From positions 10,507 to 74,506 of the forward strand of contig JACOYB010000008.1 of assembly GCA_016182085.1 (NCBI GenBank): DNA of 64,000 nucleotides, read 5' to 3'. The position numbers were made by a program, and so were the translations under genes. Below, one piece after another: positions 43,783 through 61,820 of this stretch (positions are counted from its first letter, which is position 1; every line of letters starts with the position of its first letter). The stretch comes from Candidatus Magasanikiibacteriota bacterium (GTDB taxonomy: Bacteria > Patescibacteriota > Patescibacteriia > Magasanikbacterales > GWA2-37-8). The notes beneath the pieces are model-generated. The model saw only the letters and a program-made list of their open reading frames with translations, had not been told where the DNA came from and did no database searches.

Positions 43783-46506
43783 TCACTTCATTTCGCCCCA
43801 GCTGCGATTGATGCTCAACCCAACTTTTACCGGTACGCGCAGAGTAACCACATTTTCCATTATATTTTTTACAAGATTGGCCACTTCTTCGGCCAATTCT
43901 TTTTTTACTTCCAAAACCAATTCATCATGCACCTGCAAAAGTATTTTTGGGCAATTGTCATTCCCGCCAAAGCGGGAATCCAGTCGATTGAATACTGGAT
44001 CCCCGTTTTTACGGGGATGGCAAAAAGCATCCTTGATGCCTTTTGCCACTTCTATCATGGCCATCTTCATCAAGTCGGCAGCCGTGCCCTGAATAGGATG
44101 ATTTACAGCCATACGTTCGGCAGCGGCGCGCATCTGAAAATTAGACGCATTTAATTCCGGCAAATAACGTCTGCGGCCAAACAGAGTTTCGCAATATCCT
44201 TCTTTTTTTGTAAATTCCAATGTCCGATCTATATATTCCCGCACTCCGCTAAACGCTTCAAAATATTTTTTAATAAAATCTCTGGCTTCAAATTGGGAAA
44301 TGCCGGCACGCCAGCTTAGTCCATACGAACCCATGCCATAGAGCACGCCAAAATTTACTTCTTTGGCCGCATAACGCATCTCTTTGGTAACTTCCGATAA
44401 TGGCACATTGTTTATAGCGGCGGCGGTGGCCTTATGAATATCTTCATCTTTATTAAAAATCTCTATCATGCGTTTATCTTGGGCCAGCGAGGCTACAATA
44501 CGCAATTCAATCTGCGAATAATCGGCGCTTACCAGAGTGTTTCCCGGTTCGGCTATAAAGGCTTTGCGTATTTCCCGTCCCAATTCACTGCGGATAGGAA
44601 TGTTTTGTAAATTTGGATCCAAACTAGACAAGCGTCCGGTAGCCGCCACCGTCTGATTAAAATGAGAATGAATTCTACCGGTTTTTTTGTTTACCAAATC
44701 CGGCAAAACATCTATGTAGGTATTTTGCAGTTTGGCTAATTCGCGATAAGCAGAAATCTCTTCTATTATTGGATGCAAGCCATGTAATTTTTCCAGTTCT
44801 TCGGCCGAAGTAGATAGGCCCGTCTTGCCTTTTTTTATACCGGCTGCAGACAAGTCTAATTTATCAAATAAAACTTCCCGCAGCTGAACTGGTGAAGCGA
44901 TATTAAATTCCATGCCGGCCAGTTTATAAATCTTTTTGGTTAATTTTTCCAAACTCTCTTTCGCTTCCACAGATAATTTCTTAAACATCGCTTTGTCTAC
45001 CGCAATACCGTTTAATTCCATCTCGGCCAAAACATATTCTAGCTGCATTTCCATTTTTTGAAACAAACCAAAATTACCGGCTTTTTCCAAATCGGTTTTT
45101 AATTTTTCTTTGGCCTGATTTATCAAAAATAATTCCTCGGCCAGACTCTTTTTATCTATGCCAAACAAACTTGTCTGGGCCGTATTTTGTGGCAAAATCT
45201 TACCCAAAACTTTTAGTAATATGCTGGTAATATCGTGCGCTCTGGTACCGGAGCTAAGCAGATACGAAGCTACCATCACATCAAACAGTGCATTTTCCGG
45301 CACTACATTAAAATTGTATTGCAAAGCTTTTATAAGCTCCTTTAGGTCATGCCCCACCAACTCTATATCTTTATCGGCAAACAACGGTAAAACTTTTTTT
45401 GTTATTTTGGCATCAACAAAAAATACTTGATGGCCCACAACAATCATAAGCCCCAGAAATTCGCTGTCCAAAACTTCTTTACCGCTTAACACCGCCCGAC
45501 AAGCAAACGATTTTTTCTCCTTTACTAATTTAAATAATTTTTCCAATTCACTTTCTTTGTCTATTTCAGAAAAAATCATCTTCTCGGTGTTTTTATGCTT
45601 CTCTGTTTTTTCTTCCTCTGCTTGAAACCCTGGTATTCTTTTTAATAATGAAACAAATTCAAACTTTTGAAACAGATGACTTATTTTTTCTTTATCAAAT
45701 TCACCAATTTCACAATGTTTAAAATCAAATTTCAGATCCGGCACATCGCAATCTATAGTAGAAAGTTCTTTACTCATCTTGGCGCTGTCTTCTCCTTCTA
45801 CCAGCTTGGCAATTACGCCCGGTTTTAATTCCTTAGCAATTTTTTCTCTGTTTTTTAATTGTTTGTAGATATTTTCTACACTGCCAAATTTTAAAATTAA
45901 TTCCAAAGCGGTTTTTTCGCCAATGCCGGGCACGCCGGGAATGTTATCTGAAGCATCACCGCGCAAAGCTTTGTAATCAATCATTTTTTCCGGCCCAAAC
46001 CCAAACCTGGCTTTTACGCCCGCCACATCATAAATCACAATATCGCTTATGCCTTTTCGCAAGGTGTAAACTTTTACATTATCGCGTACCAGCTGCAGAG
46101 TATCCATATCGCCGGTAACGATAAACACTTCTGCATCTTTCTTTTTTTCAAAATGTTTGGCAATGGTGCCGATTACATCATCAGCTTCGTAGCCTTTTTT
46201 TTCATAAATCGGCAAACCAAAAGCTTCTACCACTTCGTGTACCAAGGGAATTTGGTCGTATAGTGCCTGGTCGGCTTTTACGCGAGTGGCTTTATACTCT
46301 TTGTACTGCACATGCCGGAATGTCGGCCCGGCCATATCAAAAGTAACGGCAATACAGTCCGGTTTTAAATCTTTCCAAACTTTGAGCAGCATGGAAGTAA
46401 ATCCATACACAGCATTTACCATAACTCCGTCTTTGGTAGTAAGCGGAGGGATAGCATGGTACGCGCGATGGATAATGGCATTACCGTCAAAAATAACAAG
46501 TTTTTG
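43783..46506 (-). CDS. polA: DNA polymerase I (5'-3' exonuclease plus polymerase domains)
   Basis: The N-terminus (FDGNAIIHRAYHA…) marks the 5'-nuclease domain. Polymerase motifs are …RRAAKEVNFGVLYGMGSYGLS… and QVHDELVLEV. The start is trimmed to the internal Met because the upstream stretch overlaps tRNA-Cys. Confidence 0.9.
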   Translation of the reverse strand, partial: QKLVIFDGNAIIHRAYHAIPPLTTKDGVMVNAVYGFTSMLLKVWKDLKPDCIAVTFDMAGPTFRHVQYKEYKATRVKADQALYDQIPLVHEVVEAFGLPIYEKKGYEADDVIGTIAKHFEKKKDAEVFIVTGDMDTLQLVRDNVKVYTLRKGISDIVIYDVAGVKARFGFGPEKMIDYKALRGDASDNIPGVPGIGEKTALELILKFGSVENIYKQLKNREKIAKELKPGVIAKLVEGEDSAKMSKELSTIDCDVPDLKFDFKHCEIGEFDKEKISHLFQKFEFVSLLKRIPGFQAEEEKTEKHKNTEKMIFSEIDKESELEKLFKLVKEKKSFACRAVLSGKEVLDSEFLGLMIVVGHQVFFVDAKITKKVLPLFADKDIELVGHDLKELIKALQYNFNVVPENALFDVMVASYLLSSGTRAHDITSILLKVLGKILPQNTAQTSLFGIDKKSLAEELFLINQAKEKLKTDLEKAGNFGLFQKMEMQLEYVLAEMELNGIAVDKAMFKKLSVEAKESLEKLTKKIYKLAGMEFNIASPVQLREVLFDKLDLSAAGIKKGKTGLSTSAEELEKLHGLHPIIEEISAYRELAKLQNTYIDVLPDLVNKKTGRIHSHFNQTVAATGRLSSLDPNLQNIPIRSELGREIRKAFIAEPGNTLVSADYSQIELRIVASLAQDKRMIEIFNKDEDIHKATAAAINNVPLSEVTKEMRYAAKEVNFGVLYGMGSYGLSWRAGISQFEARDFIKKYFEAFSGVREYIDRTLEFTKKEGYCETLFGRRRYLPELNASNFQMRAAAERMAVNHPIQGTAADLMKMAMIEVAKGIKDAFCHPRKNGDPVFNRLDSRFGGNDNCPKILLQVHDELVLEVKKELAEEVANLVKNIMENVVTLRVPVKVGLSINRSWGEMK
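43956..44030. repeat. GTCATTCCC…GGGAATC palindromic-unit repeat located inside the polA reading frame
   Basis: gtcattcccgccaaagcgggaatccagtcga… is almost identical to the intergenic copies at 54231 and 50652. On the minus strand it reads in frame as [21 protein letters not shown], inserted just before motif C (QVHDEL). Confidence 0.6.
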
Positions 46507-46542
46507 CATATAGTTTGAGGTGCCGGCCAAAAATGAGTATTG

Positions 46543-46614
46543 AGGTCGGGATGGGAATCGCACCCACGCATAAGAGTTTTGCAGACTCCTGCCTTACTGC
46601 TTGGCTACCCGACC
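46543..46614 (-). tRNA. tRNA-Cys (anticodon GCA)
   Basis: Reverse complement GGTCGGGTAGCCAAGCAGTAAGGCAGGAGTCTGCAAAACTCTTATGCGTGGGTGCGATTCCCATCCCGACCT. Acceptor GGTCGGG/CCCGACC and anticodon loop CTGCAAA fit, but the D-loop and T-loop (TGCGATT) are atypical. Confidence 0.6.
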
Positions 46615-46662
46615 ATGGAAGTGATAAAACAATATCACTTCACGCCTATTTTTTCAACCCCT

Positions 46663-47979
46663 TTATTTAACAAACCTAAACGGATTAGTGCGAACGCCGT
46701 TTACCCATACTTCAAAGTGAATATGGATACCGGTACGACCGCGAACATTGCCAGTGTTGCCCATCAAACCAATTGTCTGTCCGGTTTCCACACGATCACC
46801 GGCGCTCACAAGCAAGCGAGAATTGTGGCCATAGAGCGTCTTGATACCACCGCCATGATCAATAATGATTACGCAGCCATAGCCCGAATTCCAACCACAC
46901 TGTGATTTCTCTACCACACCGGCTTTAGCCGCATAGTTAGGCGTAGACAAGCTTCCGCCCGCAATATCAAGACCATGATGCTTCCAAGTAAAGTACTGGG
47001 TAATAAGCCGAACCGCGGTTGGCCATACATAACCGGAAACCGTTGGGATTTGTCTGGATGCCGCTGGCTTGGCAATTTGACTTACGGCCCGAGATGGCGA
47101 TACCGGAACTCTAACCGCAACTTTTACGCCATTTGGAATCAAAATCTTTTCTCCAATTACCAAATCCGAACCATCCGTCTTTAGTTTATTGTATTTTACA
47201 ATGTCTTCAACTGTAGCCGAATATGCCGCGGCGATCTTTTTAAGCGTATCACCCCTCTTTACCGCATGAATTACGCCGTTTATTGGTAAAATTCTTAATT
47301 TATCCCCTGGTTGCAGATAGGATCTGATACTTAAATTATTCTCCCAGAGAATTGTATTGACGCTAATTTGAAATTTGCCGGCAATACTTCCAAGCGAATC
47401 GCCTGATTGAACTATATATTCTATAATTCTATCTCTACCTCCGCTTACCGTTGCTCCAGATAAAATAGTGGGTTTAGATAAAGCCGTACCCCCAGCCACT
47501 ACCGTGCCAAGTTCCACGGTTTCAAACCCGCTATGAGTAAATTGATCGGGGCTTAATGCGCCGGTTTTCCAATCCGGAGTTACCGTATTATCAAAATTCG
47601 TAGCTACCGTGGCAGTGATTTCCTCTACGCTATAGTCTTCCTCATCGGAAGGCGTTAGAGAATAGGCCACGGTCTGTCTGCCGGGGACATCAAGTTCTTT
47701 TTTGGCATACAGCTTGGTCTGGGGCAAAGCCACCACAAACAAAACCACAAATATTATGACTTGCAGGTTGTCTCGTTTTACCAGCTGGCCATCCAGCCCG
47801 GCTGCGCCCAGGATCCTCTTTATAAAGTAGTTTATTTTATAGTGTAATAACCCTATAAAACGTAAGGGCAGAACAAATATTTTGGCTAAAACAAAAAAAA
47901 TTTTGGCTCCAGTCCACCAAAACAGTCTTTTCAGGTATATCAACCCTTTCAGGCTTTTTAACAGAATTTTATAGCGCAT
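46663..47979 (-). CDS. M23-family metallopeptidase with two LysM domains
   Basis: LysM segments (GDSLGSIAGKFQISVNTILWENNL; GDTLKKIAAAYSATVEDIVKYNKL). The C-terminal M23 core is HHGLDIAG…IIDHGGGIKTLYGHNS…GNTGNVRGRTGIHIHFEV. Confidence 0.85.
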   Translation of the reverse strand: MRYKILLKSLKGLIYLKRLFWWTGAKIFFVLAKIFVLPLRFIGLLHYKINYFIKRILGAAGLDGQLVKRDNLQVIIFVVLFVVALPQTKLYAKKELDVPGRQTVAYSLTPSDEEDYSVEEITATVATNFDNTVTPDWKTGALSPDQFTHSGFETVELGTVVAGGTALSKPTILSGATVSGGRDRIIEYIVQSGDSLGSIAGKFQISVNTILWENNLSIRSYLQPGDKLRILPINGVIHAVKRGDTLKKIAAAYSATVEDIVKYNKLKTDGSDLVIGEKILIPNGVKVAVRVPVSPSRAVSQIAKPAASRQIPTVSGYVWPTAVRLITQYFTWKHHGLDIAGGSLSTPNYAAKAGVVEKSQCGWNSGYGCVIIIDHGGGIKTLYGHNSRLLVSAGDRVETGQTIGLMGNTGNVRGRTGIHIHFEVWVNGVRTNPFRFVK

Positions 47980-48124
47980 ACAGCTTGACGTAGAACGTAT
48001 CTTAACATATCATACTGTTTAAAACAACCGACCGGTATGTTCCGGTTAATGCCTAATTACAGCCATTATACCAACCGTTTTTCATCAAAATTTATCGTTT
48101 TAATCATTTTTAACTTAGGAATCT

Positions 48125-50110
48125 ATGACCGTAGTTCTCTACGCAATATTGCCGGCAGTTTTGGCAATAGTTTATGGTGTAATTTTAATTGGCTGGATCA
48201 ACAAACAGCCATCGGGCGATGACCGCATGAAGGCTATTGCTAAAGCTATTCAGGAAGGAGCCAATGCCTACCTTGGCAGACAGTATAAAACTATTGCCTT
48301 GGTTGCGGCGGCAGTATTTGTGTTAATAGCTGTTAAGGTAAATTTGGTCACTGGTCTTGGATTCTTAACCGGAGCCGTACTATCCGGACTCGCCGGCATC
48401 ATTGGCATGAACGTATGCGTACGAGCCAATATCCGCACGGCTGAAGCTGCCAAAAAGGGCATGGCTGAAGCGTTAAACGTTGCCGTACGCGGCGGTGCAA
48501 CTACTGGATTACTGGTTGTCGGTTTAGGATTACTCGGTGTCGCCGGTTTTTATATTATTACTAAAGATTTATCTGCTTTAATCGGCCTGGCTTTTGGCGG
48601 CAGTTTGATTTCAGTTTTTGCCAGAATTGGCGGCGGCATTTTCACCAAAGCTGCGGATGTGGGCGCGGATTTGGTTGGCAAGGTGGAAAAAGGTATTCCT
48701 GAAGACGATCCTCGCAACCCGGCCGTAATTGCCGATAATGTGGGCGATAATGTTGGCGATGATGCTGGTATGGCTGCTGACCTATTTGAAACATACGCCG
48801 TAACCGCAATCGCAGCTATGGTACTGGCCGGATTACTATTTGTGGGCAACGAAAAAGCTATCATCTACCCACTGGTTTTAGGTGGCGTATCTGTTGTTGC
48901 TTCAATTGTCGGAACATTCTTTATCCGCTTAGGTAAAAAACAAAATATCATGCATGCTTTATACAAAGGTTTGGTTGCGGCTGGTGTTCTATCGGCAATT
49001 GCCTTTTATCCGGTTACCAAATGGCTCATGAGCGGATTAAATGGTTATAGTGTAACTAATATTTACCTCTCCGCCTTGGTTGGCTTGGTATTATCCGGCC
49101 TTATGGTTTGGATTACTGAATATTACACTTCTACCGAATATGCTCCGGTAAAACAAATTGCCAAAGCCAGCGAAACCGGCCACGGCACCAATGTTATTGC
49201 CGGTTTGGCAGTTTCCATGAAATCCACCGCTTGGCCAGTGTTATTTATCGTGGCTGCTATCCTTACTACTTATTGGCTGGCCGGATTATACGGTGTGGCT
49301 GTAGCTGCCATGAGCATGTTATCTCTGGCTGGAATTATTGTAACCATTGATGCCTACGGCCCAATTACCGATAATGCGGGCGGTATCGCAGAAATGAGCG
49401 AGCTTCCAGAAAATGTTCGTGAAATTACCGACAAATTAGACGCGGTTGGCAATACCACCAAAGCCGTTACCAAAGGTTATGCAATTGCCAGCGCGGCACT
49501 AGCATCACTTGTGCTATTTGCCGACTTCACCCATAAACTTCCAGATTCCGTACAATTCTTAATCAATGATCCAAAAGTGCTTGCCGGTCTATTTATCGGC
49601 GGATTATTGCCATATTTATTTGGCTCTCTGCTTATGGAATCCGTTGGCAAGGTAGCTGGAAAGGTTGTAGAAGAAGTTCGTAGACAATTTAGAGAAATCC
49701 CAGGAATCATGGAACGCACCAACAAACCGGATTACGGTAAAGCCGTAGATATTGTTACCAAAGGCGCAATTAACCAGATGGTCTTACCGGCTGTTATTCC
49801 TGTACTTGCACCAATATTAGTTGGTTGGTTATTGGGCGTAGAGGCTTTGGGCGGATTATTGCTTGGTACAATCATTACCGGTTTGTTTGTAGCAATTTCC
49901 ATGACTACCGGCGGCGGCGCTTGGGATAATGCTAAAAAATATATTGAAAAAGGAAACTACGGCGGCAAGGGTTCTTTTGCCCACCAGGCCGCGGTAACCG
50001 GCGATACGGTTGGCGATCCATACAAAGATACTGCCGGCCCAGCCATTAACCCGATGATTAAAGTGGCAAATATTGTGGCGCTACTAATAGTGGGATTACT
50101 AATAAAATAA
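48125..50110 (+). CDS. hppA: Membrane-bound proton/sodium-translocating pyrophosphatase
   Basis: H+-PPase signatures are present: [19 protein letters not shown] and [21 protein letters not shown]. It is polytopic. Confidence 0.9.
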
Positions 50111-50126
50111 AATTTTACATTAACTT

Positions 50127-50190
50127 ACTGTCATCCTGAACTTGTTTCAGGATCTAAAAGAAGGTTACTAAACACGACCTTCTTTTTGTT
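50127..50190 (+). terminator. Palindromic unit plus rho-independent terminator after hppA
   Basis: atcctgaa-cttgtt-tcaggat is a repeat-family unit also found at 61795. It is followed by aagaaggt…accttct and tttttgtt. Confidence 0.6.
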
Positions 50191-50263
50191 AATTAAAAAA
50201 GTCCCGGGCAGAAACTTGTTCTGCGACAGGACTTGGACCGTGGTAACCGAGGTACGCGCCGAG

Positions 50264-50518
50264 CTACCTCGCCAGGTTTCTCTCATGCTCCTCCTTGGTC
50301 ATGCACCCGCATTCGCCTCGCTTACACTCCTCCTTGTAGGCAGAACGCAACCGATTGGCGAGATCCTGGAGACACGTTGGACACTCCTGGACGGGAATGC
50401 CCAAGGCGTCGAGGAAACCGTCCTTCTCGCGCTGAATGCACTGCTTCTCCAGATCGCTTCCGGGTTGTGCCGTGTGCACATGACCGGACGGACATTGAAC
50501 ATTGTATTTGGTCTCCAT
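50264..50518 (-). CDS. Cys-rich small protein (84 aa) in a GC-rich island
   Basis: METKYNVQCPSGH…CPTC…C..GECGC contains seven Cys. A minus-strand TTGACT-N17-TAGACT promoter at 50538-50565 and a GGGGA SD precede it. A terminator hairpin plus T6 lies at 50195-50236. Confidence 0.55.
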   Translation of the reverse strand: METKYNVQCPSGHVHTAQPGSDLEKQCIQREKDGFLDALGIPVQECPTCLQDLANRLRSAYKEECKRGECGCMTKEEHERNLAR

Positions 50519-50651
50519 GGATTCCCCTTTGAAACGAGTCTAGCATAAAATATCTCTAAAGTCAATGTATCCCGTATCTAAACATGATTACCCGTTGCCT
50601 TGACATTTTACTATTTTTCCATTAAAATTAGCGGGTAATAAACTCATTTTT

Positions 50652-50800
50652 GTCATTCCCGCCACAAGCGGGAATCCAAACAATTAATTGTACACTGAAT
50701 TCCCAATCAAGCCTGCCTGTAGGCAGACAGGTTGGGATGACAGACAGAGATCCCTCGTCATCCCGAGTACTCGGGACTCGCTCGGGATGACAAATCCGCG
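50652..50800. repeat. Cluster of about 4 palindromic units of the GTCATCC…GGATGAC family
   Basis: The units are gtcattcccgccacaagcgggaatcc, gggatgac…gtcatccc and gtcatcccgag-tactcgggactcg-ctcgggatgac. Confidence 0.65.
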
Positions 50801-50833
50801 TAATCCACACTTTAAATCTGTGTAATCAATAAT

Positions 50834-53895: not shown

Positions 53896-53953
53896 ACTAT
53901 ATCACCTTACAGTTATTATATTACTATAAAAAATCTAATTTTGCAACCTACTT

Positions 53954-54226
53954 TTACGGAAGATCCTCTCCACCCTTACCCCATGGATTACAACGCAAAA
54001 TCCTCCAAGCTGCCTTAAAACCGCCTACCACTAGGCCGTTTTTTTTTATTGTTTGGTAGCCATACTCGCTGCAAGTGGGATAAAACCGGCAATACCCATA
54101 AGGAAACGCCCGTTTAAATAGGCCGTGGTCAGGAGAAATAGTTTTTTGATAAAGTTTTATTAATAATAAAATAGGCATTCTTGGCAGAAATAAGAGAAAA
54201 TTTATTATTCTTTTAATCATAATCAT
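53954..54226 (-). CDS. yidD: Membrane protein insertion efficiency factor YidD
   Basis: …[61 protein letters not shown] is the YidD signature. The start is trimmed out of the upstream palindrome. Confidence 0.8.
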
Positions 54227-54229
54227 CTT

Positions 54230-54296
54230 TGTCATTCCCGCCAAAGCGGGAATCTAGTCGACAATTGTCTGGATTCCCGCTTTGGCGGGAATGACA
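54230..54296. repeat. 67-bp near-perfect palindrome made of two inverted GTCATTCCCGCCAAAGCGGGAATC units
   Basis: tgtcattcccgccaaagcgggaatc-tagtcgacaattgtctg-gattcccgctttggcgggaatgaca lies between rnpA and yidD. Confidence 0.8.
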
Positions 54297-54302
54297 ATAA
54301 AA

Positions 54303-54698
54303 CTAAACTTTTAAAACCTTCGCTTTAGATAATAATACTTTTATTTCTTGGCTAATCTCTGGGTAATTTTTATTCAAAATATCTTTTTTTGCTACCACAA
54401 GTATATAGTAGCCATTTTTTATGGCCCCATCCTTAATTAACAGCCGAACAGCCTCACGGATCTGTCTGCGAACTCGGTTGCGCTTCACGGCGCTTTTATG
54501 CACTTTTAATCCCGTAGAAATTGCTAGCTTTAGCTGATTTTTAAAACTTTCCGGATCCTCTTTTTTTGGAAAAAAGTTTTGATTTTTGGCTAATTCTAGG
54601 GCCTTTATATCCAAAAACTGGCCATTTACCCAGCGACCATGCTTTAAAATTAAATTAAAATCCCTAACTTTTCTTAAACGATTGTCTTGTTGCAGCAT
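54303..54698 (-). CDS. rnpA: RNase P protein component
   Basis: The RNR motif KSAVKRNRVRRQIREA is present, in rpmH-rnpA-yidD context. Confidence 0.85.
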   Translation of the reverse strand: MLQQDNRLRKVRDFNLILKHGRWVNGQFLDIKALELAKNQNFFPKKEDPESFKNQLKLAISTGLKVHKSAVKRNRVRRQIREAVRLLIKDGAIKNGYYILVVAKKDILNKNYPEISQEIKVLLSKAKVLKV

Positions 54699-54706
54699 AA
54701 TAAAAA

Positions 54707-54825
54707 TATTATATCAGGATACCACCTTTTTGTCTTGGCAACACACCGCGGGCCAATTCGCATCGGCCGAGGTCTGAAGCGGCCAATCGCCACAGCGATT
54801 GGAACGCTGTTTGCCGAGATAAATA
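54707..54825. ncRNA. Structured element copy B, in the rpmH-rnpA intergenic spacer
   Basis: Outer stem ggataccacct…aggtggtatc. The core gcaacacaccgcgggccaattcgcatcggccgaggtctgaagcggccaatcgccacagcgattggaacgctgtttgc is homologous to copy A. It carries a compensatory change in hairpin 2 (aatcgc/gcgatt versus agtcgc/gcgact). Confidence 0.5.
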
Positions 54826-54878
54826 GGTGGTATCTAAATTAAACATAAAACCCGCGTTTCTAGCGGGTTTTATGTTTA

Positions 54879-55059
54879 ATTACCAGGTTTTTCTTGTTCT
54901 CTTGCCCTTGCGTTCGTCTGAAACCGTGAGCTTCTTTCTACCCTTAGCGCGTCTGCGGCTTAGTACCGCACGTCCACCCTTGGTTGCCATTCTGGATCGA
55001 AAACCATGGGATTTTGCTCTCTTTCTTTTTTTAGGTTGATAAGTTCTTTTTGTTGCCAT
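54879..55059 (-). CDS. rpmH: 50S ribosomal protein L34, apparently interrupted by a 1-nt frameshift near an A7 run
   Basis: Frame 1 from the ATG at 55059 gives [14 protein letters not shown] second frame gives [46 protein letters not shown] through to the stop. Together they reconstruct a typical L34. This is a manual translation. Confidence 0.55.
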
Positions 55060-55276
55060 AAACTAGCATTAAAAGTTTAAATTAAGTACCCTCATTATAG
55101 GGTTTATTTTAACAATTGTCAAGTTATACCCTGACACCAAATGGTTTAGTATGGGTTATACAGTTTGTCCACAACTTGTCCCCAGTCTTTCCCCCACCCA
55201 TTTTTAGCTAACTATTGGTCAGTTTATCTTCTTGTGATAAGATTAAAAACACTTATCATAATAAGCTCTTTATCGT

Positions 55277-56671
55277 ATGTCTAACCACGAAATATGGCAG
55301 GCCGTCCTAGCTGAACTTGAGCTTTCCATTTCCAAACCAAACTTTGTTACCTGGTTTAAAAATACAGATATCTTGTCCTATCAGGATAATTATGTTGTTT
55401 TGTGCGTCCCAAATGACTTTTACCGCGCTTGGATAGAAAAAAACTACCACCAAACCATCGTAAAATCTTTAGAGAGGGTTACCGAAAAGCCTGTAAAAAA
55501 ACTGGAATATAAAATTTTCAACATTAAAAACATTGTTCCTCAAACTCATGAGGTAAAAACTGAAAACCCCGTTCCCGAAACAAATTTAAGCACACCCGAC
55601 TTTTCTTCAAGCGAGGGTAAAATACCGCCTCGTGTCGGTGAGTTTGGCTTAAACCCAAAGTATAATTTTGAAACCTTTGTGGTTGGTGGCGGTTCAGAGC
55701 TGGCTTTTGCCGCAGCCCAGGCTGTGGTAAATAAACCCGGTGAAGCCTATAACCCACTATTTATTTATGGCGGCGTAGGGCTTGGCAAAACCCACTTGGT
55801 CCAGGCTATTGGCAACCACTTGTTAAAGGCCAGACCCAACATTAGCATCATGTATGCCAGCGCCGAGAAATTTTCCAATGATTATATTGCCTCGGTTAGA
55901 GATGGTAATGCCAAAAACTTTCAAAATCGCTATCGCAATATTGATGTGCTTTTAATTGATGATATCCAATTTATCTCGGGCAAAGACAAAACCCAAGAAT
56001 CTTTTTTCCACACCTTCAACGAACTCCACCAGCAAAACAAGCAAGTAGTAATGACCTCTGACCGCCCGCCAAAAGCTATCCCGGCCCTGGAAGACCGCTT
56101 AAAATCCCGTTTTGAATGGGGTATGATTGTGGATGTGGCTCCACCAGACCTGGAAACCAGAATCGCGATTTTGCAAAAAAAATGTGTAGAGAAGAATTTT
56201 CCGCTTAACCAAGAAATTTTACAGCTGGTTGCTACCACTATTTTCCGCAATATCCGCGAACTAGAGGGGGCTTTAAACAAAATTATCGCCCTACATCAGC
56301 TCAAAAACATGGAACCAACTGTGGAATCGGTAAAATCTCTCCTAGCTAACTCCGAGGTCAGGACTACCTACAAATCCATCACCCCCCAACAAATTATTGA
56401 AGCTGCCAGCGAATTCTTTACCATCAACATTGCTGACTTACTTGGCCAAAGCCGAGAAAAAAAATTCTCCTATCCACGCCAAATTATCATGCATCTCATG
56501 CGTAAAGAGCTGAACATGTCGTATCCGGCAATTGGCAACGAACTCGGTGGCCGCGACCACACCACCGCCATGCATGCCGACAACAAAATTAGCAATGATA
56601 TTGAACGAGACAACAAATTAAAACAAGAGATTGAACTGATTAAACAAAAATTGTATATCAATATTACCTAG
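55277..56671 (+). CDS. dnaA: Chromosomal replication initiator DnaA
   Basis: The AAA+ Walker A (GGVGLGKTHLVQAIGN), sensor motifs, and a C-terminal DNA-binding domain (…HTTAMHADNKI…) are present. Confidence 0.95.
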   Translation: MSNHEIWQAVLAELELSISKPNFVTWFKNTDILSYQDNYVVLCVPNDFYRAWIEKNYHQTIVKSLERVTEKPVKKLEYKIFNIKNIVPQTHEVKTENPVPETNLSTPDFSSSEGKIPPRVGEFGLNPKYNFETFVVGGGSELAFAAAQAVVNKPGEAYNPLFIYGGVGLGKTHLVQAIGNHLLKARPNISIMYASAEKFSNDYIASVRDGNAKNFQNRYRNIDVLLIDDIQFISGKDKTQESFFHTFNELHQQNKQVVMTSDRPPKAIPALEDRLKSRFEWGMIVDVAPPDLETRIAILQKKCVEKNFPLNQEILQLVATTIFRNIRELEGALNKIIALHQLKNMEPTVESVKSLLANSEVRTTYKSITPQQIIEAASEFFTINIADLLGQSREKKFSYPRQIIMHLMRKELNMSYPAIGNELGGRDHTTAMHADNKISNDIERDNKLKQEIELIKQKLYINIT

Positions 56672-56689
56672 CAAATATAAAAATACCTG

Positions 56690-57060
56690 AGCATAAGTTG
56701 TGGATAAGGGAGGTAAAAACAACACTTCTTACACACTCTTTATTAACACTACCAAACACTTATAAACAGATAAAATAAATTCCGAAAAATCCGCCCACAC
56801 TTTATTAGTCCAGTCCGCACAATTTACCAACAGCTATAATTAAGAAAGGTTTGCTAGATATAACGCTTTTTCCGACTTATCCACCCTTATCCACCGCATT
56901 ATAGTAACGATTGTAATTTATTTATAAATAAATCGATATACAATAATAGACAATAAAAATTTACCCACGGTTTTTAATAAAATTTTATAGGGGCTAAAGC
57001 CGCATATATACTCGTTCGCTCATATAAAGTTAAAAACATTTAACTTTATATTCACTCATT
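56690..57060. promoter_or_regulatory. Candidate oriC, a DnaA-box cluster plus an AT-rich unwinding region
   Basis: DnaA boxes TTGTGGATAA (56698-56707), CTTATCCACC ×2 (56876-56896) and TTTACCCACG (56961). An AT-rich tract lies at 56920-57000, between dnaA and dnaN. Confidence 0.6.
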
Positions 57061-57066
57061 TCGCAT

Positions 57067-58194
57067 ATGAAATTCTTTTGCACAAAGGAGAACTTGTCAA
57101 AAGCTTTGGCGCTGGTAATTGGGGTGGCCGGTAAAAATATTAACCTGCCAATACTTGGCAATGTCCTTATCAAGGCGACTGAACAAAAAGTAGAATTTAT
57201 GGCCACTAATTTAGAGTTGGCTATAACTTCCAATCTACGAGCCAAGGTAGAAGTTCCGGGTGTGTTTACGGTACCGGCCAGAACCCTCAATGACTTTGTG
57301 AATTTATTATCTGAAGAAAAAGTTGAGTTAACCCTAAAAGATAACGAGTTAGAGGTGGTGTGTGGGAGGTCTTCAACCAAGATAAAAGGCGCGCCAGCCG
57401 ATGAGTTCCCGGTTGTGCCGGTGGTAGGCGAAGGAAAGGGTTATTTAATAGAGGTAGAGGCCCTTAAGAGCGGTTTAGGACAGGTTTTTCAGGCGGCGTC
57501 AAAGAATGAAATTAGGCCAGAGCTCGCCGGTGTTTTGTTTAATTTCAATGATCAACCAGGGGTGCTTACTTTGGCCGCAACTGACAGTTATAGGTTGGCA
57601 GAAAAGAAGGTAAAAGTGCTGCAAGGAGAAGATAAGGCACGGATAATTATTCCAGCTCGCACGGCGCAGGAAATGAACCACATTTTAATAATTTCCCTAT
57701 CCAAAGGAGCAGAAAGCGAAAAAAACATCCGACTGCTGGTAACCGAAAATCAAATAGTTTTGCGCTGCAATGATGTGGAACTCGTGTCTCGCCTGGTAGA
57801 CGGCCAATATCCGGATTATACCCAGATTATTCCAACCAGCTTTAAAACCGAGGCGGACTTCTCTACAAACCAGATAACCAAGGAAATAAAGGCTGCTAGT
57901 TTGTTCACCACAACTGGTGTAAATGCTGTAAGTTTTGAGTTTGACCCCACAGCCGGGGTTATTCATTTGTCTTCGGTTTCCACCCAGACCGGTGAGTACA
58001 AATCCGAAGTTTCGGCAGATGTTAAGGGTGAAAAGAATAATACGCTTTTGAACCACCGGTATATTTTAGACGGTCTTTCAAATATCAACACCGAGAACGC
58101 GGTGTTAAAGGTAATAAATGCGGACAGCCCGTGCGTGCTTGCGCCAAAGGGCGATCAAAGCTTTGTTTATATTGTGATGCCTATAAGACAATAA
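57067..58194 (+). CDS. dnaN: DNA polymerase III beta sliding clamp
   Basis: N-terminus MKFFCTKENLSKAL…, three-domain length (375 aa), position after dnaA. Confidence 0.9.
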   Translation: MKFFCTKENLSKALALVIGVAGKNINLPILGNVLIKATEQKVEFMATNLELAITSNLRAKVEVPGVFTVPARTLNDFVNLLSEEKVELTLKDNELEVVCGRSSTKIKGAPADEFPVVPVVGEGKGYLIEVEALKSGLGQVFQAASKNEIRPELAGVLFNFNDQPGVLTLAATDSYRLAEKKVKVLQGEDKARIIIPARTAQEMNHILIISLSKGAESEKNIRLLVTENQIVLRCNDVELVSRLVDGQYPDYTQIIPTSFKTEADFSTNQITKEIKAASLFTTTGVNAVSFEFDPTAGVIHLSSVSTQTGEYKSEVSADVKGEKNNTLLNHRYILDGLSNINTENAVLKVINADSPCVLAPKGDQSFVYIVMPIRQ

Positions 58195-58239
58195 AAATTC
58201 AAATAAAAAATATCCGACGTAACGTCGAATATTTTTTAT

Positions 58240-60921
58240 TTATTCTATATTCACCTGTAAAGTCTTCTCAACCGTATTACCAAAATTATCCAATAGTACT
58301 GCCTTGAGCGAATGTTCTCCAGCGCCCGGACTATTTTTCCAGGTAAATGTGAGCATGTTGTTAAACAATTTATCTTCTTGATGGTTAAAGTTATAAATCA
58401 ACCTCTGGCTGCCGCCGTTTGAAGACAGATAAATATCAATTTTTTTCATATCATCCCATCTAAACGGTACGATATTAAACACGCGTGGATAATCATCTGG
58501 CCGTAAGGTAAGCGGGCCAGAATCAAACCACTCAAAGTTTGGCGGATCAAAATCCGCCTGCATCGCAAAAGTAATGCTCTTTTGTGAACTGTGTCCCGCG
58601 TCATCAACAGCTACGGCGCTTAGGGTGTGCGGACCTTTTGAAAGTTTTTGCGCGTAGTAATTTAAAGTAAATGGGAATTCCGTAGCTGTGCCAATCGGTT
58701 GGTTATCTATTTGATAGATTATTTTGCTAACCCCGCCCGGAGCCGTGGCGCGCGTTTCAATATTCATTTCTCTGGAAGTAAGCACCACGCCTTCAACCGG
58801 AGAAATAAATTCTATCTTTGGAGCCAGTTCAGCCGCAAGTTCGCTGTCATATTCGGTTGGCGGTTCTAGGAAAGTTACATTTTCGCTGGATTGTAGCTTT
58901 ACCACCCAAACTTGTAATGCTTGCTCCCAATTTAAATATTGCGGATCATCGGCCGGAAATGGCGGCGCAGGTCCGCGCGGATCTTCTCTATCTACATAAT
59001 GAAGAATATCGTGTGGAGGCAGATAAGTGCGTTCTGTAATTAAATTTTCTGGAGTGGAGCTGGAAGCAATTTTACCGGTTTCAGAATTAATTTTTAAGGT
59101 AATACCGTTGTTGCCGCCGCGCAGTACGGGTTTCTGCGCGTCATTTGGTGGTGGGGCCGGGAAATATTCTACAGGAGTTCCTTTTACCGCTTCCTTCATG
59201 AACTTATTCCAAATCGTACCGGCCAAGGCATTGCCGCCGGCTTTCATTGAAGTTGGTACGGTATTGCCTACCCAAACACCCGCAACTATTGATGGGGTAT
59301 TTTGTCCTTCATTTTCCTCCGGTTTCCATTCATACAATACTTCTCCAGTCGGGTCTGTAACTTTCAAAATACTAACCGGTTTATTATATACGCCGTTATT
59401 TGCCAGTGTGGCATAACCATTGGTATGTTCCAGCAAATTTACCTCACCACCGCCAAGCACAAGACTTAAGCCATAGTCACCGGTAAAGGTGGTGTAGCCA
59501 AACCGTTTGGCAAAATCTATCGTGTTTTTTGTGCCAACCAAATACATAGTCTTTACTGCTGGAATATTTAATGATCCTTGCAAGGCTCGGCGGATTGTAA
59601 CTAGCCCATGTTCTTTGCCGTCAAAATTTTTGGGCGTATAGTTTGCGCCCGCACGCGCATCAAAATTAGTGGTGACATCATATAGCACAGTATCTGGTGT
59701 ATAACCTTTTTCAAAAGCCAACGTATAGACAAATGGTTTAAACGAAGAACCAGGCTGGCGTTTCCCCAAAGTGGCCACGTCAAACTGGCCATTAATTTCA
59801 TCATTGTTATAATCGCGTGAACCGACCAGGGTTAGGATTTGGCCGGTTTTTGGATCAATGGCCACTAGCGCGGCGTTATTGGCATTGGCGGTTTTGGCAT
59901 TTTTATCTCCCAGTTCTTTTACAATTGCTTCCGCGGCTTTTTGTTTATCATAATCTAATGAGGTGATAATTTTTAATCCGCCCCCATCTACAGTTTTTTC
60001 ACCAAATTCTTCGGCCAAAAGTTGTTTTACATATAATACGAAATGCGGCGCTTCCATTGGTCCGCCAGATTTGAAAATTCGCAGCGCCACTCCTTGCGCT
60101 TCTTTTTTTTGTTCCTCGGTTATCATTCCTTGGTCATACATGAGCGCGAGTACCACATCTCGTCTATCTCGCAGCGCGTCTAAATTTTTTAAGAAACGAC
60201 TAGGAGACGGCAAAATGGCCGCCAGCGTAGCTGCTTCGGCCAGGGTTAAGTCTTTAGCGCTTTTTTGAAAATATGATTGACTGGCAGACTCAATACCATA
60301 ATTGGTAGAGCCGTATGGAATCTCATTTAAATACAGTTTTAAAATTTCATCCTTGGTATATTTTTTTTCCAGACGCACCGCCAGAATTGCTTCCTTTATT
60401 TTTCTAAAATAACCCCAGATGCCGCGGCGTTCATCTCCGACAATAGTATTTTTAATTACTTGTTGAGTAATAGTGGAAGCGCCGCCTGAACCGCTTTTAC
60501 GGCCGATTAGGTTGTTGAATCCAGCTCTAATGATACTGACCACACGTACGCCGCTATGTTCATAGAAGTGTTTATCTTCAATGGCCACGGTAGCTTGTTT
60601 GGCATAATCCGAAATCTGATCCAGGTTAACCAGGGTACGTTTTTGGTTGTGGTAGACCTCATACAGCAGATGTTCGCCCGTACGATCGTAGATTTTGGTG
60701 CTTTGCGATACGCGACGATCGTTTAATTTGTTTGGGTCTGGGAGGTCGCGACTAATGATTGCTATGGTAATCGTGCCAATAATAAAAGAAGCGCAAAAAA
60801 TAGCGGCCGCGGCCAGACCAGCAGTTTTAAGGAGTTTTTTTCTTTTTTCCGGAGATGACCAGGGTTCACTGCCGGGAATATGGCCATATTGCCGTCTTTG
60901 GTTAAGTTGAGGGATGGGCAT
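58240..60921 (-). CDS. Class A penicillin-binding protein (PBP1A-type) with a ~300-aa C-terminal extension
   Basis: Glycosyltransferase GT51 motifs (…EDKHFYEHSGV…RKSGSGGASTITQQV…) and transpeptidase SxxK/SxN/KTG-type motifs (…GSSFKPF…). The start is set at an internal Met (MPIPQLNQ…); the ORF could extend to 61071. Confidence 0.8.
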   Translation of the reverse strand: MPIPQLNQRRQYGHIPGSEPWSSPEKRKKLLKTAGLAAAAIFCASFIIGTITIAIISRDLPDPNKLNDRRVSQSTKIYDRTGEHLLYEVYHNQKRTLVNLDQISDYAKQATVAIEDKHFYEHSGVRVVSIIRAGFNNLIGRKSGSGGASTITQQVIKNTIVGDERRGIWGYFRKIKEAILAVRLEKKYTKDEILKLYLNEIPYGSTNYGIESASQSYFQKSAKDLTLAEAATLAAILPSPSRFLKNLDALRDRRDVVLALMYDQGMITEEQKKEAQGVALRIFKSGGPMEAPHFVLYVKQLLAEEFGEKTVDGGGLKIITSLDYDKQKAAEAIVKELGDKNAKTANANNAALVAIDPKTGQILTLVGSRDYNNDEINGQFDVATLGKRQPGSSFKPFVYTLAFEKGYTPDTVLYDVTTNFDARAGANYTPKNFDGKEHGLVTIRRALQGSLNIPAVKTMYLVGTKNTIDFAKRFGYTTFTGDYGLSLVLGGGEVNLLEHTNGYATLANNGVYNKPVSILKVTDPTGEVLYEWKPEENEGQNTPSIVAGVWVGNTVPTSMKAGGNALAGTIWNKFMKEAVKGTPVEYFPAPPPNDAQKPVLRGGNNGITLKINSETGKIASSSTPENLITERTYLPPHDILHYVDREDPRGPAPPFPADDPQYLNWEQALQVWVVKLQSSENVTFLEPPTEYDSELAAELAPKIEFISPVEGVVLTSREMNIETRATAPGGVSKIIYQIDNQPIGTATEFPFTLNYYAQKLSKGPHTLSAVAVDDAGHSSQKSITFAMQADFDPPNFEWFDSGPLTLRPDDYPRVFNIVPFRWDDMKKIDIYLSSNGGSQRLIYNFNHQEDKLFNNMLTFTWKNSPGAGEHSLKAVLLDNFGNTVEKTLQVNIE

Positions 60922-61137
60922 ATTTGTTGACTCAGAAACGATATTATTAGCACAGCCAGTTGGTTTTGTAAATGTAGGCAAGTTCACGCAGAGCTTTTGA
61001 TATTTTATATCATTTTTTTGTTTTTTACCACCCGGCAAAATGACAGGCGGAAGGGTTGACAAAAATGGCAATTTGTGATATATTATGCCGTTAACAAAGC
61101 AGGGGTACCTTAAGGGTATCTTTTAATTTTAACAAAT

Positions 61138-61701
61138 ATGCGCTTAGTTAAGAGAAATTTGACCGTTAAAGGCTTAGAAATAGCCCTGCATACAGTGGTA
61201 GGAATCGCTTTAATTAGCCAAATTACCTTGCCAATGACTGCGAAAGCCCTAATGGGCCAAGAAATGGCTAATTCTACACAAAAAATAGCTTTAGAGGTGG
61301 CAAAACCAGCCACTAAACCGCAAGATAGCATAAAATTGGCTATCGCGGATAAAGAAGAACGGGAAGAAAAGCCGGATAGAGTAATGAATGCGGTAATTAC
61401 TGCTTATACCAGTACCCCAGATCAAACCGATGACAGCCCATTTATTGCGGCTTCCGGTAAAAGGGTGCATGACGGTATGATTGCGGCCAATGGCTTGCCA
61501 TTTGGTACCAGAATCAAGATCCCGGCTTTATATGGAGATAAGATCTTCTATGTAGAAGACCGCATGAATTCCAGATACGGCCTGGGTCGTATGGATATCT
61601 GGTTGGATACTACCAGAGCCGAAGCCAGAAAGTTTGGTGTTAAGCGAGTAGAGGTAGAAATCTTTTACCCGGAAAAGAAAGCTCTTACTAGAGCTAGATA
61701 A
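61138..61701 (+). CDS. 3D-domain (MltA-like) cell-wall protein
   Basis: AVITAYTSTPDQTDDSPFIAASGKRVHDGMIAANGLPFGTRIKIP…GDKIFYVEDRMNSRYGLGRMDIWLDT is a 3D domain with the three conserved Asp. Confidence 0.75.
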   Translation: MRLVKRNLTVKGLEIALHTVVGIALISQITLPMTAKALMGQEMANSTQKIALEVAKPATKPQDSIKLAIADKEEREEKPDRVMNAVITAYTSTPDQTDDSPFIAASGKRVHDGMIAANGLPFGTRIKIPALYGDKIFYVEDRMNSRYGLGRMDIWLDTTRAEARKFGVKRVEVEIFYPEKKALTRAR

Positions 61702-61715
61702 GCACTCAAAAAAAC

Positions 61716-61752
61716 AAAAAGGCCCTTTAATTGGGGCCTTTTTGTTTTTGGT
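61716..61752 (+). terminator. Rho-independent terminator
   Basis: aaaaaggcccc-ttaatt-ggggcc followed by tttttgttttt. Confidence 0.75.
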
Positions 61753-61753
61753 T

Positions 61754-61820
61754 GTCATGCTGAACAGGTTTTCAGCATCTCGTCAATATAATTAGATCCT
61801 GAAACAAGTTCAGGATGACA
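61754..61820. repeat. Two tandem palindromic units of the GTCAT…GATGAC family between convergent genes
   Basis: The units are gtcatgctgaa-caggttt-tcagcatc and gatcctgaa-acaagt-tcaggatgaca. The second is the exact reverse complement of the copy at 50127-50152. Confidence 0.7.

Follow-up and report, generated by a model that had tools for sequence, protein, structure and literature searches.

An in-frame GTCAT-headed palindromic module in the polA gene of a Candidatus Magasanikbacteria genome

Results

A 69-nt element is read in frame ahead of PolA motif C

The DNA analysed here is a 64-kb stretch (the window) of a contig from a Candidatus Magasanikbacteria MAG (uncultured, CPR). The polA gene lies on the minus strand (43783..46509) and encodes 908 aa followed by a TGA stop, with the 5′-nuclease, exo-like and polymerase domains intact in translation; since a tRNA occupies positions 46543-46614, the start was set at M19 of the long ORF. 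The product is identical (100%) to the NCBI entry 'DNA polymerase I [Candidatus Magasanikbacteria bacterium]' (P0001), matches Taq, Bst and Klenow in the PDB, and carries the catalytic QVHDE sequence as residues 859-863. Just before this motif C, polA contains a palindromic element of 69 nt (43955..44023, minus strand) consisting of two inverted hairpin units and a 16-nt spacer. The element is read in frame as 23 codons, and its product, 22 residues between F and N, corresponds to PolA residues about 829-852. The original prediction of one full repeat copy tolerated in frame at this place holds, with the length of the insert corrected from ~21 aa to 69 nt or 23 codons.

The first unit of the element, GTCATTCCCGCCAAAGCGGGAATC (43957..43980, plus strand), is intact and NTS-like, having the dRS3 core ATTCCC-N8-GGGAAT with a GTC head and a C tail. 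Identical 24-mers are present at 54231-54254 (plus strand) and 54272-54295 (minus strand), in the polA gene of L005 and on at least 120 metagenome contigs. The second unit, GCCATCCCCGTAAAAACGGGGATCC (43997..44021, minus strand), is a variant with the head GCC rather than GTC, and two compensated pairs set its stem, ATCCCCGT/ACGGGGAT, apart from ATTCCCGC/GCGGGAAT. Directly upstream in the sense of polA stands an extra hairpin, TGGCAAAAGGCATC-AAG-GATGCTTTTTGCCA (44018..44048, minus strand; 13/14 paired), whose 3′ arm overlaps the terminus of the element. This hairpin recurs in L007 with compensatory changes and partly in L003-L005.

The best reference copy for the insert is an intergenic element of the same length between rnpA and yidD (54229..54297), with 29-nt arms that are 97% complementary; yidD was named by domain assignment. 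A unit in polA had been described as almost identical to this copy, which is true of the first 26 nt of the polA element, an exact match, but not of the whole, where identity is 55/69 (57/69 against the reverse complement). Among the reading frames of the reference copy, the one used in polA is alone in being open in both orientations. The polA junctions of the window and L007 may be read as having a 4-nt direct repeat, TGYC, or else an overlap of the TIRs, which leaves a target-site duplication ambiguous; no such repeat was found at the intergenic copies. The open frame suggests that the insert is translated. Translational bypass, an intron and an intein were considered and rejected, as the frame is open, also where the hairpins have decayed, and the insert is far too small.

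In the alignment with Taq and Bst, the insert falls into a gap between Taq chain residues 475 and 484. AlphaFold2 assigns a pLDDT below 50 to residues 833-849 and predicts coil for 830-854, with the flanks of the insert intact (helix 791-829 and strand 855-860). In this model the insert is a disordered loop by the active site, between helix Q and the strand with the catalytic Asp862, and the predicted surface position is compatible with fold and function.

GTCAT-headed hairpins form a dispersed family in the window

Strict hairpin units of the form GTC-AT-stem-loop-stem-AT-C number seven in the 64-kb window, against 0.23 expected from shuffles (maximum 2), and both oriented flanks, GTC directly 5′ of the palindrome and C directly 3′, are found on 7/7. 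They span 43.9-61.8 kb, around dnaA, with several degenerate copies besides. The sequence GTCATYCC occurs 8 times (2.2 expected), and perfect 8-bp hairpins with an ATYCY start occur 10 times (1.0 in shuffles, maximum 5). Further stem subfamilies, CTGAAC and CCCGAG, stand beside the main units in the same window. Rfam searches in gathering and E-value modes returned tRNAs and sub-threshold terminator-like matches only, and the units are covered by no RNA family.

All hairpin copies that the original prediction had listed (50127, 50652-50800, 54230-54296 and 61754-61820) are present, and the repeat family is indeed over-represented. A single unit, GTCATCCTGAACTTGTTTCAGGATC (50130..50154, plus strand), lies 20 nt past the stop of the H+-PPase gene, with a canonical terminator next to it (50156-50186). 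Between convergent genes, a 71-nt element (61752..61822) with units at 61754-61779 (plus strand) and 61795-61819 (minus strand) directly follows a terminator (61710-61749); a near-identical match to this pair is found at 19648-19727 of L007, in a non-orthologous place. The exact reverse complementarity reported for the copies at 50127 and 61795 extends over 29 nt (50129-50157 and 61794-61822) rather than 26. The 5′ leader of tig contains a composite element (50652..50741), made of an intact unit (50652-50676) and an imperfect inverted unit that ends with GGGATGAC at 50741, and near it a compact 35-nt palindromic element, GTCATCCCGAG...CTCGGGATGAC (50757..50791). At the same tig-leader position of L002, downstream of a common promoter, there is an element of a different subfamily.

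Two copies at the end of polA had been overlooked: a degenerate GTCATCC...GGATCC unit (43705..43763, minus strand) and a palindrome, TGACGCAA...TTGCGTCA (43760..43785, minus strand), that contains the polA TGA stop. Related elements occupy the same place in L006 and L007; the polA-end element is absent from L001-L003, in which the stop is TAG or TAA. The proposed location of the units mostly at gene 3′ ends describes three sites (H-PPase, polA and the convergent pair at 61.7 kb) but not the tig 5′ leader (50652-50791) or the rnpA-yidD copy, which is within an operon.

The units resemble Neisseria NTS and dRS3 repeats

The dRS3 core of Neisseria is the 20-bp sequence ATTCCC-N8-GGGAAT (Bentley et al. 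2007, PMC1797815). The small GIY-YIG nuclease SsnA targets NTS in ssDNA form, and their wider relatives, the 'Ssn-related motifs' (SRM), are recognised by SsnA-family nucleases (Chenal et al. 2025, PMC11893778). Cutting and binding by SsnA depend on the GTC head and the C tail, and loop identity is not required for cleavage (PMC11893778). In the window, the dRS3 core is exact in three units (43960-43979, 54234-54253 and 54273-54292), and the unit at 50655-50675 has a dRS3-like core with N9. The authors' search rule for NTS allows at most one mismatch to the 28-nt consensus CGTCATTCCCGCGMAVGCGGGAATCYRG (PMC11893778), from which TGTCATTCCCGCCAAAGCGGGAATCCAG and the form ending in CTAG depart by two (T at position 1 and C at loop position 13). 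The degenerate SRM pattern HGTCWYN(0-2)YYVSBRHN(0-5)WNVSBRGN(0-2)RNCYNB gave 0 matches in the 64-kb window, failing at the first loop base, which is C and not R; a structural definition (GTC-AT-stem-AT-C) was used in its place.

Motif searches, tblastn and Pfam on 40 ORFs detected no Ssn/GIY-YIG, RAYT or other transposase gene in the 64-kb window; about 97 kb of close relatives gave none either, and no Ssn gene of the small single-domain GIY-YIG kind (cd10448) was found in L001-L007. Small Ssn-like GIY-YIG genes flanked by these units are present on the related contigs L209, L159 and L135, one of these contigs being Magasanikbacteria-like, and the Ssn-like protein of L135 has relatives at 61-81% that are named Candidatus Magasanikbacteria. 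By sequence comparison, the window units are best assigned to the NTS/dRS3/SRM hairpins, a GTCAT-headed class associated with GIY-YIG nucleases of the Ssn type.

The module architecture recurs across phyla, with at least 119 genome loci matching the pattern; inverted pairs of 66-137 nt number 25. In-frame copies occur elsewhere in the P-type ATPase of a Magasanikbacteria MAG and in TruB, DNA methylase, TGT, GatB, Mur ligase and UvrA, and additionally in MreB and a UvrA-like ABC ATPase. When the 32-aa insert was compared with 1.84 billion protein representatives, 7 matches came back, nearly all of them spurious ORFs of repeat arrays, and none was a host protein.

The same PolA loop is filled in some orthologues and empty in others

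The closest orthologues of the window PolA (P0002-P0006, about 90% identical outside the loop) are without the insert. It is present in P0015-P0017 (80-84%) and, with other internal units, in P0027-P0030, P0045 and P0073; codon, frame and flanks agree in all of them. Other GTCAT...ATGAC elements occupy this loop in L006 and L007, the VIAR-type insertion of L006 being at a slightly different codon. Counting the same insert and others, such elements fill the loop in 19-21 of 119 orthologues (about 18%), which bears out the earlier remark that the insertion point is notable; some orthologues have such elements at other PolA loops as well. The orthologue comparison called for earlier came out in favour of the original prediction: the segment is missing from the nearest relatives, and where it is shared it still resembles the repeat at the nucleotide level.

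Compared with the nearest element-free orthologues, the window loop has 18 additional aa; compared with Taq, it has about 24. The filled allele has 27 codons in place of 9, not a clean addition of 23. The compared polA sequences yielded no clean empty site whose flanks are identical, and the predicted empty allele D-A/S-F-C-P-K (..FCPK..) is seen in 0/119 PolA orthologues. Filled and empty intergenic sites (rnpA-yidD and H-PPase-tig) gave no clean junctions because their spacers have diverged too far.

When the window is compared with L005, identity at third codon positions is 88% (23/26) inside the element and 56% outside, a contrast with a binomial P of about 5e-4 by our own calculation. The stems are identical between the two, and the loops and spacer differ. 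In L003 and L004 the hairpins are decaying, with the frame still open. The predicted fold of the element region has −56 kcal/mol, versus −3 to −7 in empty alleles.

Discussion

A probable origin of the PolA insert

There is, in our judgement, a strong case that the window carries members of a GTCAT-headed hairpin class, one 69-nt module of which was fixed and is tolerated in polA, with spread that would proceed through ssDNA hairpins. This explanation builds on the sequence-based family identity of the units, their over-representation, the in-frame state of the insert and its presence or absence in orthologues, and on the location and disorder of the loop, its reuse as a host site and the conservation of the stems at the DNA level. 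The units form short palindromic modules here, each with two inverted units around a variable spacer, and one such module would have become fixed inside polA. It would survive there because its length is a multiple of three, because the frame CH[PS]R...GND is stop-free in either orientation of the reference copy, because the peptide is hydrophilic and rich in Gly, Asp, Asn, Arg and Pro, and because its site, which joins helix Q to the Asp862 strand, is a surface loop of variable sequence in which it would be extruded as a disordered segment. Modules may be spread, kept uniform, or both, by a process acting on ssDNA hairpins, for which the most plausible agent is a candidate Ssn-type GIY-YIG nuclease that would be encoded elsewhere in the genome. 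The patchy loop alleles could result from repeated insertion near a pre-existing hairpin, from homologous exchange of polA segments between populations, or from both. Against this explanation weigh the lack of an Ssn, RAYT or other transposase gene in the window and in about 97 kb of close relatives, the unmatched SRM pattern, the missing clean empty site and the ambiguous target-site duplication, as does the known role of Ssn in Neisseria, which is to cut incoming ssDNA.

The filled allele may instead have been imported from a related population by homologous recombination or transformation, with loop alleles circulating as cassettes, and we take this as a serious contender even if we lean against it. 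Across the PolA tree, loop alleles have a scattered distribution and vary together with the sequence directly beside them (AKGIKDAF...NCPK). Over the final third of polA, the window resembles the filled L003-L005 (0.79-0.91) as much as it does empty alleles, and over the whole gene its similarity to filled alleles (0.76-0.79) is lower than to empty ones (0.825). Type IV pilus components are encoded in the window, and transformation is modulated by NTS repeats in Neisseria (PMC11893778). However, intergenic copies of this genome match the 43957-43980 unit exactly, an observation equally consistent with local insertion or gene conversion, and the insertions at different codons (VIAR-type, L006) need independent events anyway. 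Import is compatible with the identity of the element and concerns only the route by which this genome acquired it.

A second alternative is that the polA hairpins are kept for a role at the DNA or RNA level, either as an Ssn cleavage or recognition site that limits or directs polA recombination or as mRNA structure that acts on translation or stability; the insert would then be more than passively tolerated. Such a role, which we think unlikely, would account for stems that stay identical between the window and L005 while the loop, the spacer and other synonymous sites diverged (88% versus 56%), for the two compensated base-pair changes between the two arms and for the very stable predicted fold. 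Recent gene conversion with other genomic copies gives the same pattern, however; the hairpins of L003 and L004 are decaying within a frame that remains open, and the closest relatives manage without the insert.

We similarly doubt that the insert is an old, vertically inherited PolA loop that the empty relatives lost by deletion, its similarity to the repeat reflecting ancient origin only. The common codon, frame and flanks in P0015-P0017, and the other internal units in P0027-P0030, P0045 and P0073, would agree with such a history, but several independent in-frame replacements would be needed in the clade where the window nests, and an exact match of 26/26 nt to an intergenic copy would not be expected given the divergence in the rest of polA.

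Mobilisation of a classical REP/BIME by RAYT (an IS200/IS605-like tyrosine transposase) is very improbable. The resemblance is general only, residing in short GC-rich imperfect palindromes that are clustered, often arranged in inverted pairs and mostly extragenic, whereas the conserved head is GTCAT and not a tetranucleotide of the GTAG type, a search of the window ORFs gave no Y1 transposase, and units flank GIY-YIG genes elsewhere. What survives of the REP/BIME-type label first given to the units is a dispersed family of small palindromes; as classical REP/BIME, with neither the GTAG head nor a RAYT gene, they do not qualify. Finally, a repeat-induced mis-join that placed a repeat copy inside polA, as might befall a MAG contig whose genome repeats the unit, is scarcely credible, because reading frame and PolA homology are continuous on both sides and homologous inserts are present in three independent assemblies from other samples (L003, L004 and L005).

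Implications

Two known phenomena, Ssn-associated NTS/SRM hairpins and in-frame selfish DNA of the type of Rickettsia palindromic elements (RPE), are extended here to the Candidate Phyla Radiation and joined. The notion of 'selfish DNA in proteins' is already known from Rickettsia, and the CPR PolA example is new. The occurrence of the 24-nt unit in frame in several core enzymes across phyla suggests that hairpin repeats are a general source of protein loop insertions, and Ssn offers a concrete enzyme candidate, with substrates, for the study of repeat spread. In CPR genomes such inserts inflate apparent protein novelty, and the repeats yield spurious ORFs, for example 'VIPAKAGIQ', 'DSRFRGND' and 'CHPRESGDP'.

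A far-reaching version, improbable as a whole, is that Ssn-type modules are actively targeted to CPR coding sequences and maintained in them. The helix-Q loop would then be a hot spot that adjoins a resident hairpin whose arm mimics the element end, and intragenic hairpins would mark, like punctuation, the places where Ssn cleaves ssDNA during transformation. If this were true, populations would trade essential genes, polA among them, as mosaic cassettes, and the 25-year-old RPE phenomenon, Neisseria dRS3/NIME and the CPR inserts would come down to one mechanism.

Comparison with known systems

The module of our preferred explanation can be set beside four kinds of short palindromic repeat. 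REP/BIME of Enterobacteria and Pseudomonas are small extragenic mosaic palindromes whose spread is attributed to RAYT, a domesticated enzyme with specificity for ssDNA hairpins. The window units are likewise small palindromes, form mosaics and are mostly extragenic, but they have the head GTCAT in place of a GTAG-type one, a GIY-YIG nuclease instead of RAYT as candidate partner, and in-frame copies. MITEs (Correia/NEMIS, ERIC, Nezha) are short, non-autonomous and bounded by terminal inverted repeats, and some lie in frame within genes. Such repeats are clear at the rnpA-yidD copy, with its long, nearly complementary arms (29 nt, 97%); unlike in MITEs, there is no clear target-site duplication and no parent IS is known, and the termini are autonomous hairpins common to many otherwise unrelated modules.

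With the NTS/dRS3/SRM repeats the window units have in common an identical core, the GTC head and the C tail, the arrangement as hairpins, inverted pairs and small mosaics, non-random clustering, spread over many phyla, and units that flank GIY-YIG genes on related contigs. They differ by two mismatches to the 28-nt consensus and by the unmatched strict SRM pattern, by the coexistence of other stem subfamilies, and by a Patescibacteria host, a group outside Chenal et al. 2025 (PMC11893778), with no ssn in the window. They also differ in having one copy in frame in an essential gene, while NTS are reported to be rarely intragenic (2% in N. meningitidis; PMC11893778).

The RPE literature (Ogata et al. 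2000 via PMC10969869; Matsutani et al. 2013, PMC3767692) describes palindromic repeats in frame in housekeeping genes, which stay unbroken, at fold-compatible positions, with different element groups at the same locus in orthologues, and reports an ATGAC hallmark for RPE-4/-6/-7 (PMC10969869, PMC3767692). The shared hallmark ATGAC (= GTCAT) of RPE-4/-6/-7 is the sole sequence link to the window elements, which are shorter (35-90 nt against about 100-150 bp) and belong to another phylum; the literature search found no link of Patescibacteria to such elements, nor of RPE to GIY-YIG. By analogy, the in-frame behaviour of the polA element matches that of Rickettsia palindromic elements: in both, a multi-copy palindrome is found in intergenic places as well as in frame within intact ORFs, orthologues carry different element groups at one locus, and the same question of hot spot versus common origin arises.

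Hairpin units around the replication origin

The polA gene (43783-46509, minus strand) encodes a protein 100% identical to P0001, the NCBI entry for DNA polymerase I of a Candidatus Magasanikbacteria MAG, and related Patescibacteria contigs show synteny with the region around it. After polA, the second half of the window continues with genes for a LysM/M23 peptidase, an H+-pyrophosphatase, tig, an AP endonuclease, a Fic protein, yidD, rnpA, rpmH, dnaA (55277-56671), dnaN and a class A PBP. From this gene order, the repeat copies and the polA insert therefore surround the replication origin of a small genome with ~41% GC.

All repeat copies in the original prediction were found in the sequence. 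GTCATYCC occurs 8 times in the window versus 2.2 expected, and perfect 8-bp hairpins beginning with ATYCY occur 10 times versus 1.0 in shuffles. Strict units (GTC, then a hairpin whose stem starts with AT and ends with AT, then C) number 7 against 0.23 expected, all at 43.9-61.8 kb. These units are clustered near the origin, within the 18 kb around dnaA/dnaN (43900-61900), with none in the other 44 kb (1-43900). The copies at 50127 and 61795 are exact reverse complements as predicted, over 29 nt (50129-50157 and 61794-61822) rather than 26. The polA element (43955-44023) and an intergenic copy (54229-54297) are each exactly 69 nt long and consist of two inverted units flanking a short spacer. 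Their predicted resemblance is exact over the first 26 nt; across the whole element 55/69 positions agree.

Between the hairpin units at 50130-50154 and 50652-50676 lies a segment of ~330 nt (50190-50520) at ~58% GC, with a Cys-rich 84-aa ORF on the minus strand (50264-50518); searches gave no Pfam or Rfam match and no homologue among 5.8 billion proteins. The related contig L002 carries a different GC-rich insert in the H-PPase/tig spacer, and has no Fic/DOC gene at the position corresponding to that of the window (53051-53716, between AP endonuclease and yidD, ~500 nt from the element at 54229-54297). A free-standing LAGLIDADG homing-endonuclease ORF (121 aa) is located at 31922-32287, with a similar ORF on related contig L003 (12016-12414). 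On the minus strand at 16126-27564, an ORF of 3812 aa is followed by a 1020-aa ORF with fn3/SdrD-like domains; such giant surface-type proteins are common in CPR genomes.

An in-frame element in PolA

Alignment with orthologues (n=119) showed that the five closest, P0002-P0006, lack the segment. Outside the loop these are 89-91% identical to the window PolA, and their loop reads ...KKIKSNDHKSLAQAKILLQVHDEL. Extra residues do precede the catalytic motif as predicted; the proposed size of ~21 aa is replaced by a net gain of 18 residues over the nearest relatives (27 codons in place of 9), or ~24 over Taq polymerase. Three orthologues with 80-84% identity (P0015, P0016, P0017) share the insert at the identical codon and frame. 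The frame is open in all three corresponding contigs, although their DNA hairpins range from intact (L005) through half decayed (L004) to largely decayed (L003).

Reading frame and position would explain why polA tolerates the insert. The intergenic copy at 54229-54297 has only one frame without stops in both orientations (CHSRQSGN...LDSRFGGND), and polA uses that frame; the GGA-ATG-ACA frame ends in TGA and the third meets stops in the spacer. In alignment with Taq, the insert falls into a gap bounded by chain residues 475 and 484, from helix Q to the catalytic-aspartate strand. An AlphaFold2 model (mean pLDDT 83.9) places it before the catalytic motif as expected, with residues 791-829 as a long helix, 830-854 as coil (pLDDT <50 at 833-849) and 855-860 as a strand running into QVHDE at 859-863. 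The model thus predicts a palm domain that is normal except for the insert, which leaves it as a disordered loop.

Directly upstream of the insert in the polA sense is a 14-bp hairpin, TGGCAAAAGGCATC-AAG-GATGCTTTTTGCCA (44018-44048), whose first arm looks like native coding sequence and whose second arm overlaps with the end of the element. It is present with compensatory changes in L007, a related contig with another element in this loop, and partly in L003-L005, and could be a structure targeted by the element or an inverted duplication that arose when the element inserted. Since intergenic elements also adjoin terminator hairpins, it is reasonable, though unproven, to suppose that elements insert at the foot of hairpins already in place. 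The junctions are readable as 4-nt direct repeats (TGCC in the window, TGTC in L007), under which the two elements would share a single empty site encoding D-A/S-F-C-P-K; none of the 119 orthologues searched had this site.

Import of the filled allele by recombination, rather than local insertion, is a live alternative, as the last third of the window polA is equally similar to filled and empty alleles, although the gene overall is less similar to filled ones. Misassembly is argued against by the filled alleles of L003, L004 and L005, which are independent assemblies from other samples.

Stem conservation and recurrent use of the loop

Comparison with L005 shows 76% nucleotide identity in polA, falling to 56% for third-codon positions; the element itself has 88% for both (23/26 third positions). 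The stems are identical and the differences lie in loops and spacer. Within the window copy, one arm differs from the other by two compensated base pairs. Such intragenic stem conservation is compatible with selection acting on the hairpin or with gene conversion from copies elsewhere in the genome; the decayed copies of L003 and L004 show that neither is universal.

In other lineages, the loop before QVHDE hosts other elements with GTCAT...ATGAC ends. L007 has a single unit encoding CHPERAKRVEGS, and L006, another related contig, has a GTCATTGCGAGG...CGCGATGAC element encoding VIARRETTKQS...LAMT, a few codons upstream and in a different frame; several further element types occupy the same loop. 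Element-type peptides are present here in 19/119 orthologues (21/119 including two short VIAR-type loops). With the loop excluded, a neighbour-joining tree has the loop alleles dispersed over its branches instead of grouped by clade, and the window PolA nests among insert-free sequences. Some orthologues have element-type peptides in other PolA loops, near reference residues 123, 223-227 and 398-403.

The end of polA is also affected. A degenerate unit at 43705-43763, additional to those originally listed, abuts a 26-nt palindrome (43760-43785) within which the TGA stop codon of polA lies, and L006 and L007 have related elements in the same arrangement. Because relatives without an element at the gene end terminate polA with TAG or TAA, the stop codon appears to have been replaced by the repeat.

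Family identity

The Neisseria dRS3 repeat is defined by 20 bp, ATTCCC-N8-GGGAAT (PMC1797815), and three window units fit exactly. About half of dRS3 copies are part of a longer oriented 28-nt hairpin, NTS (CGTCATTCCCGCGMAVGCGGGAATCYRG), which the small single-domain GIY-YIG nuclease SsnA binds and cuts solely as single-stranded DNA; the three bases 5′ of the palindrome affect cutting and the C directly 3′ affects binding (Chenal et al. 2025, PMC11893778). The GTC head and C tail are both present in the window units, in which two positions (first base and first loop base) depart from the NTS consensus. In many phyla, ssn genes have related hairpins, termed SRM, on their flanks (PMC11893778); because of these two differences, the published degenerate SRM pattern does not match the window units.

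The pattern GTCATTCCCGC-N3-6-GCGGGAATC occurs at no fewer than 119 loci (one genome per species), against ~4 expected by chance over the whole collection by our own estimate. Among the matches listed are Proteobacteria, Bacteroidota, Chloroflexota, Planctomycetota, Nitrospirota, Neisseria, several Patescibacteria classes and others, and 25 of those listed have two inverted units enclosing 20-90 nt of unrelated sequence, the module design of the window 69-mer. At least 120 metagenome contigs carry the polA copy's 24-mer without mismatch, with GC from 34% to 67% among the matches listed. The original reading as a palindromic repeat family with a tolerated polA copy was essentially right; in place of its REP/BIME-type label, the family is better named NTS/dRS3-type, Ssn-associated hairpin modules.

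Candidate partner nuclease

GIY-YIG genes and transposases are absent from the 64-kb window and from ~97 kb of close relatives. Ssn-like GIY-YIG genes (Pfam PF01541) do occur among contigs retrieved with the unit. On L159 and L209 such a gene has NTS-like units on both sides, one of them on L209 being the exact window 24-mer. On L135, a 457-kb contig, a locus at 37% GC has a GIY-YIG gene flanked by four SRM-like units, with an exact window unit 2.6 kb away. Two small GIY-YIG genes are in tandem there (6449-7056), of which the first is Ssn-like, and the four units around it represent three different stem subfamilies. Relatives of the L135 protein at 81%, 71% and 61% identity bear the NCBI name Candidatus Magasanikbacteria, so the clade has the candidate partner enzyme, which this genome may also encode.

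The NTS-ssn-NTS layout resembles an insertion sequence, and NTS/Ssn modulates natural transformation in Neisseria (PMC11893778). For this reason, the type IV pilus genes at 4639-9178 (pilB-like T2SSE, pilC-like T2SSF, pilM, pilN) are possibly relevant.

In-frame copies elsewhere and comparison with RPE

The polA-type unit is in frame in bona fide proteins of other genomes, namely a P-type ATPase (another Magasanikbacteria MAG), TruB, a DNA methylase, TGT (Parcubacteria), GatB (Saccharibacteria), a Mur ligase (Massilia) and UvrA. Low-GC metagenome contigs add MreB and a UvrA-like ABC ATPase. On L096 (965-2716), a contig binned as Nanoarchaeota, the same NTS-like unit is in frame in an N6/N4 DNA methylase, either because it has spread between domains or because the contig is wrongly binned.

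Both Ssn-associated hairpins and RPE-type in-frame insertion have already been described. What is new is the host phylum, the repeated use of the PolA helix-Q loop, the conservation of intragenic stems at the DNA level, and the presence of one and the same unit within the reading frames of numerous core proteins from different phyla. In-frame palindromic insertion was first described for Rickettsia palindromic elements (reviewed in PMC10969869), and the polA copy is an RPE-like insertion. RPE-4, -6 and -7 have the pentamer ATGAC in common (Matsutani et al. 2013, PMC3767692), the complement of the GTCAT head of the window units. The same study found different RPE groups at one locus in orthologous genes and raised the question of hot spots versus a common origin, which the PolA loop poses likewise.
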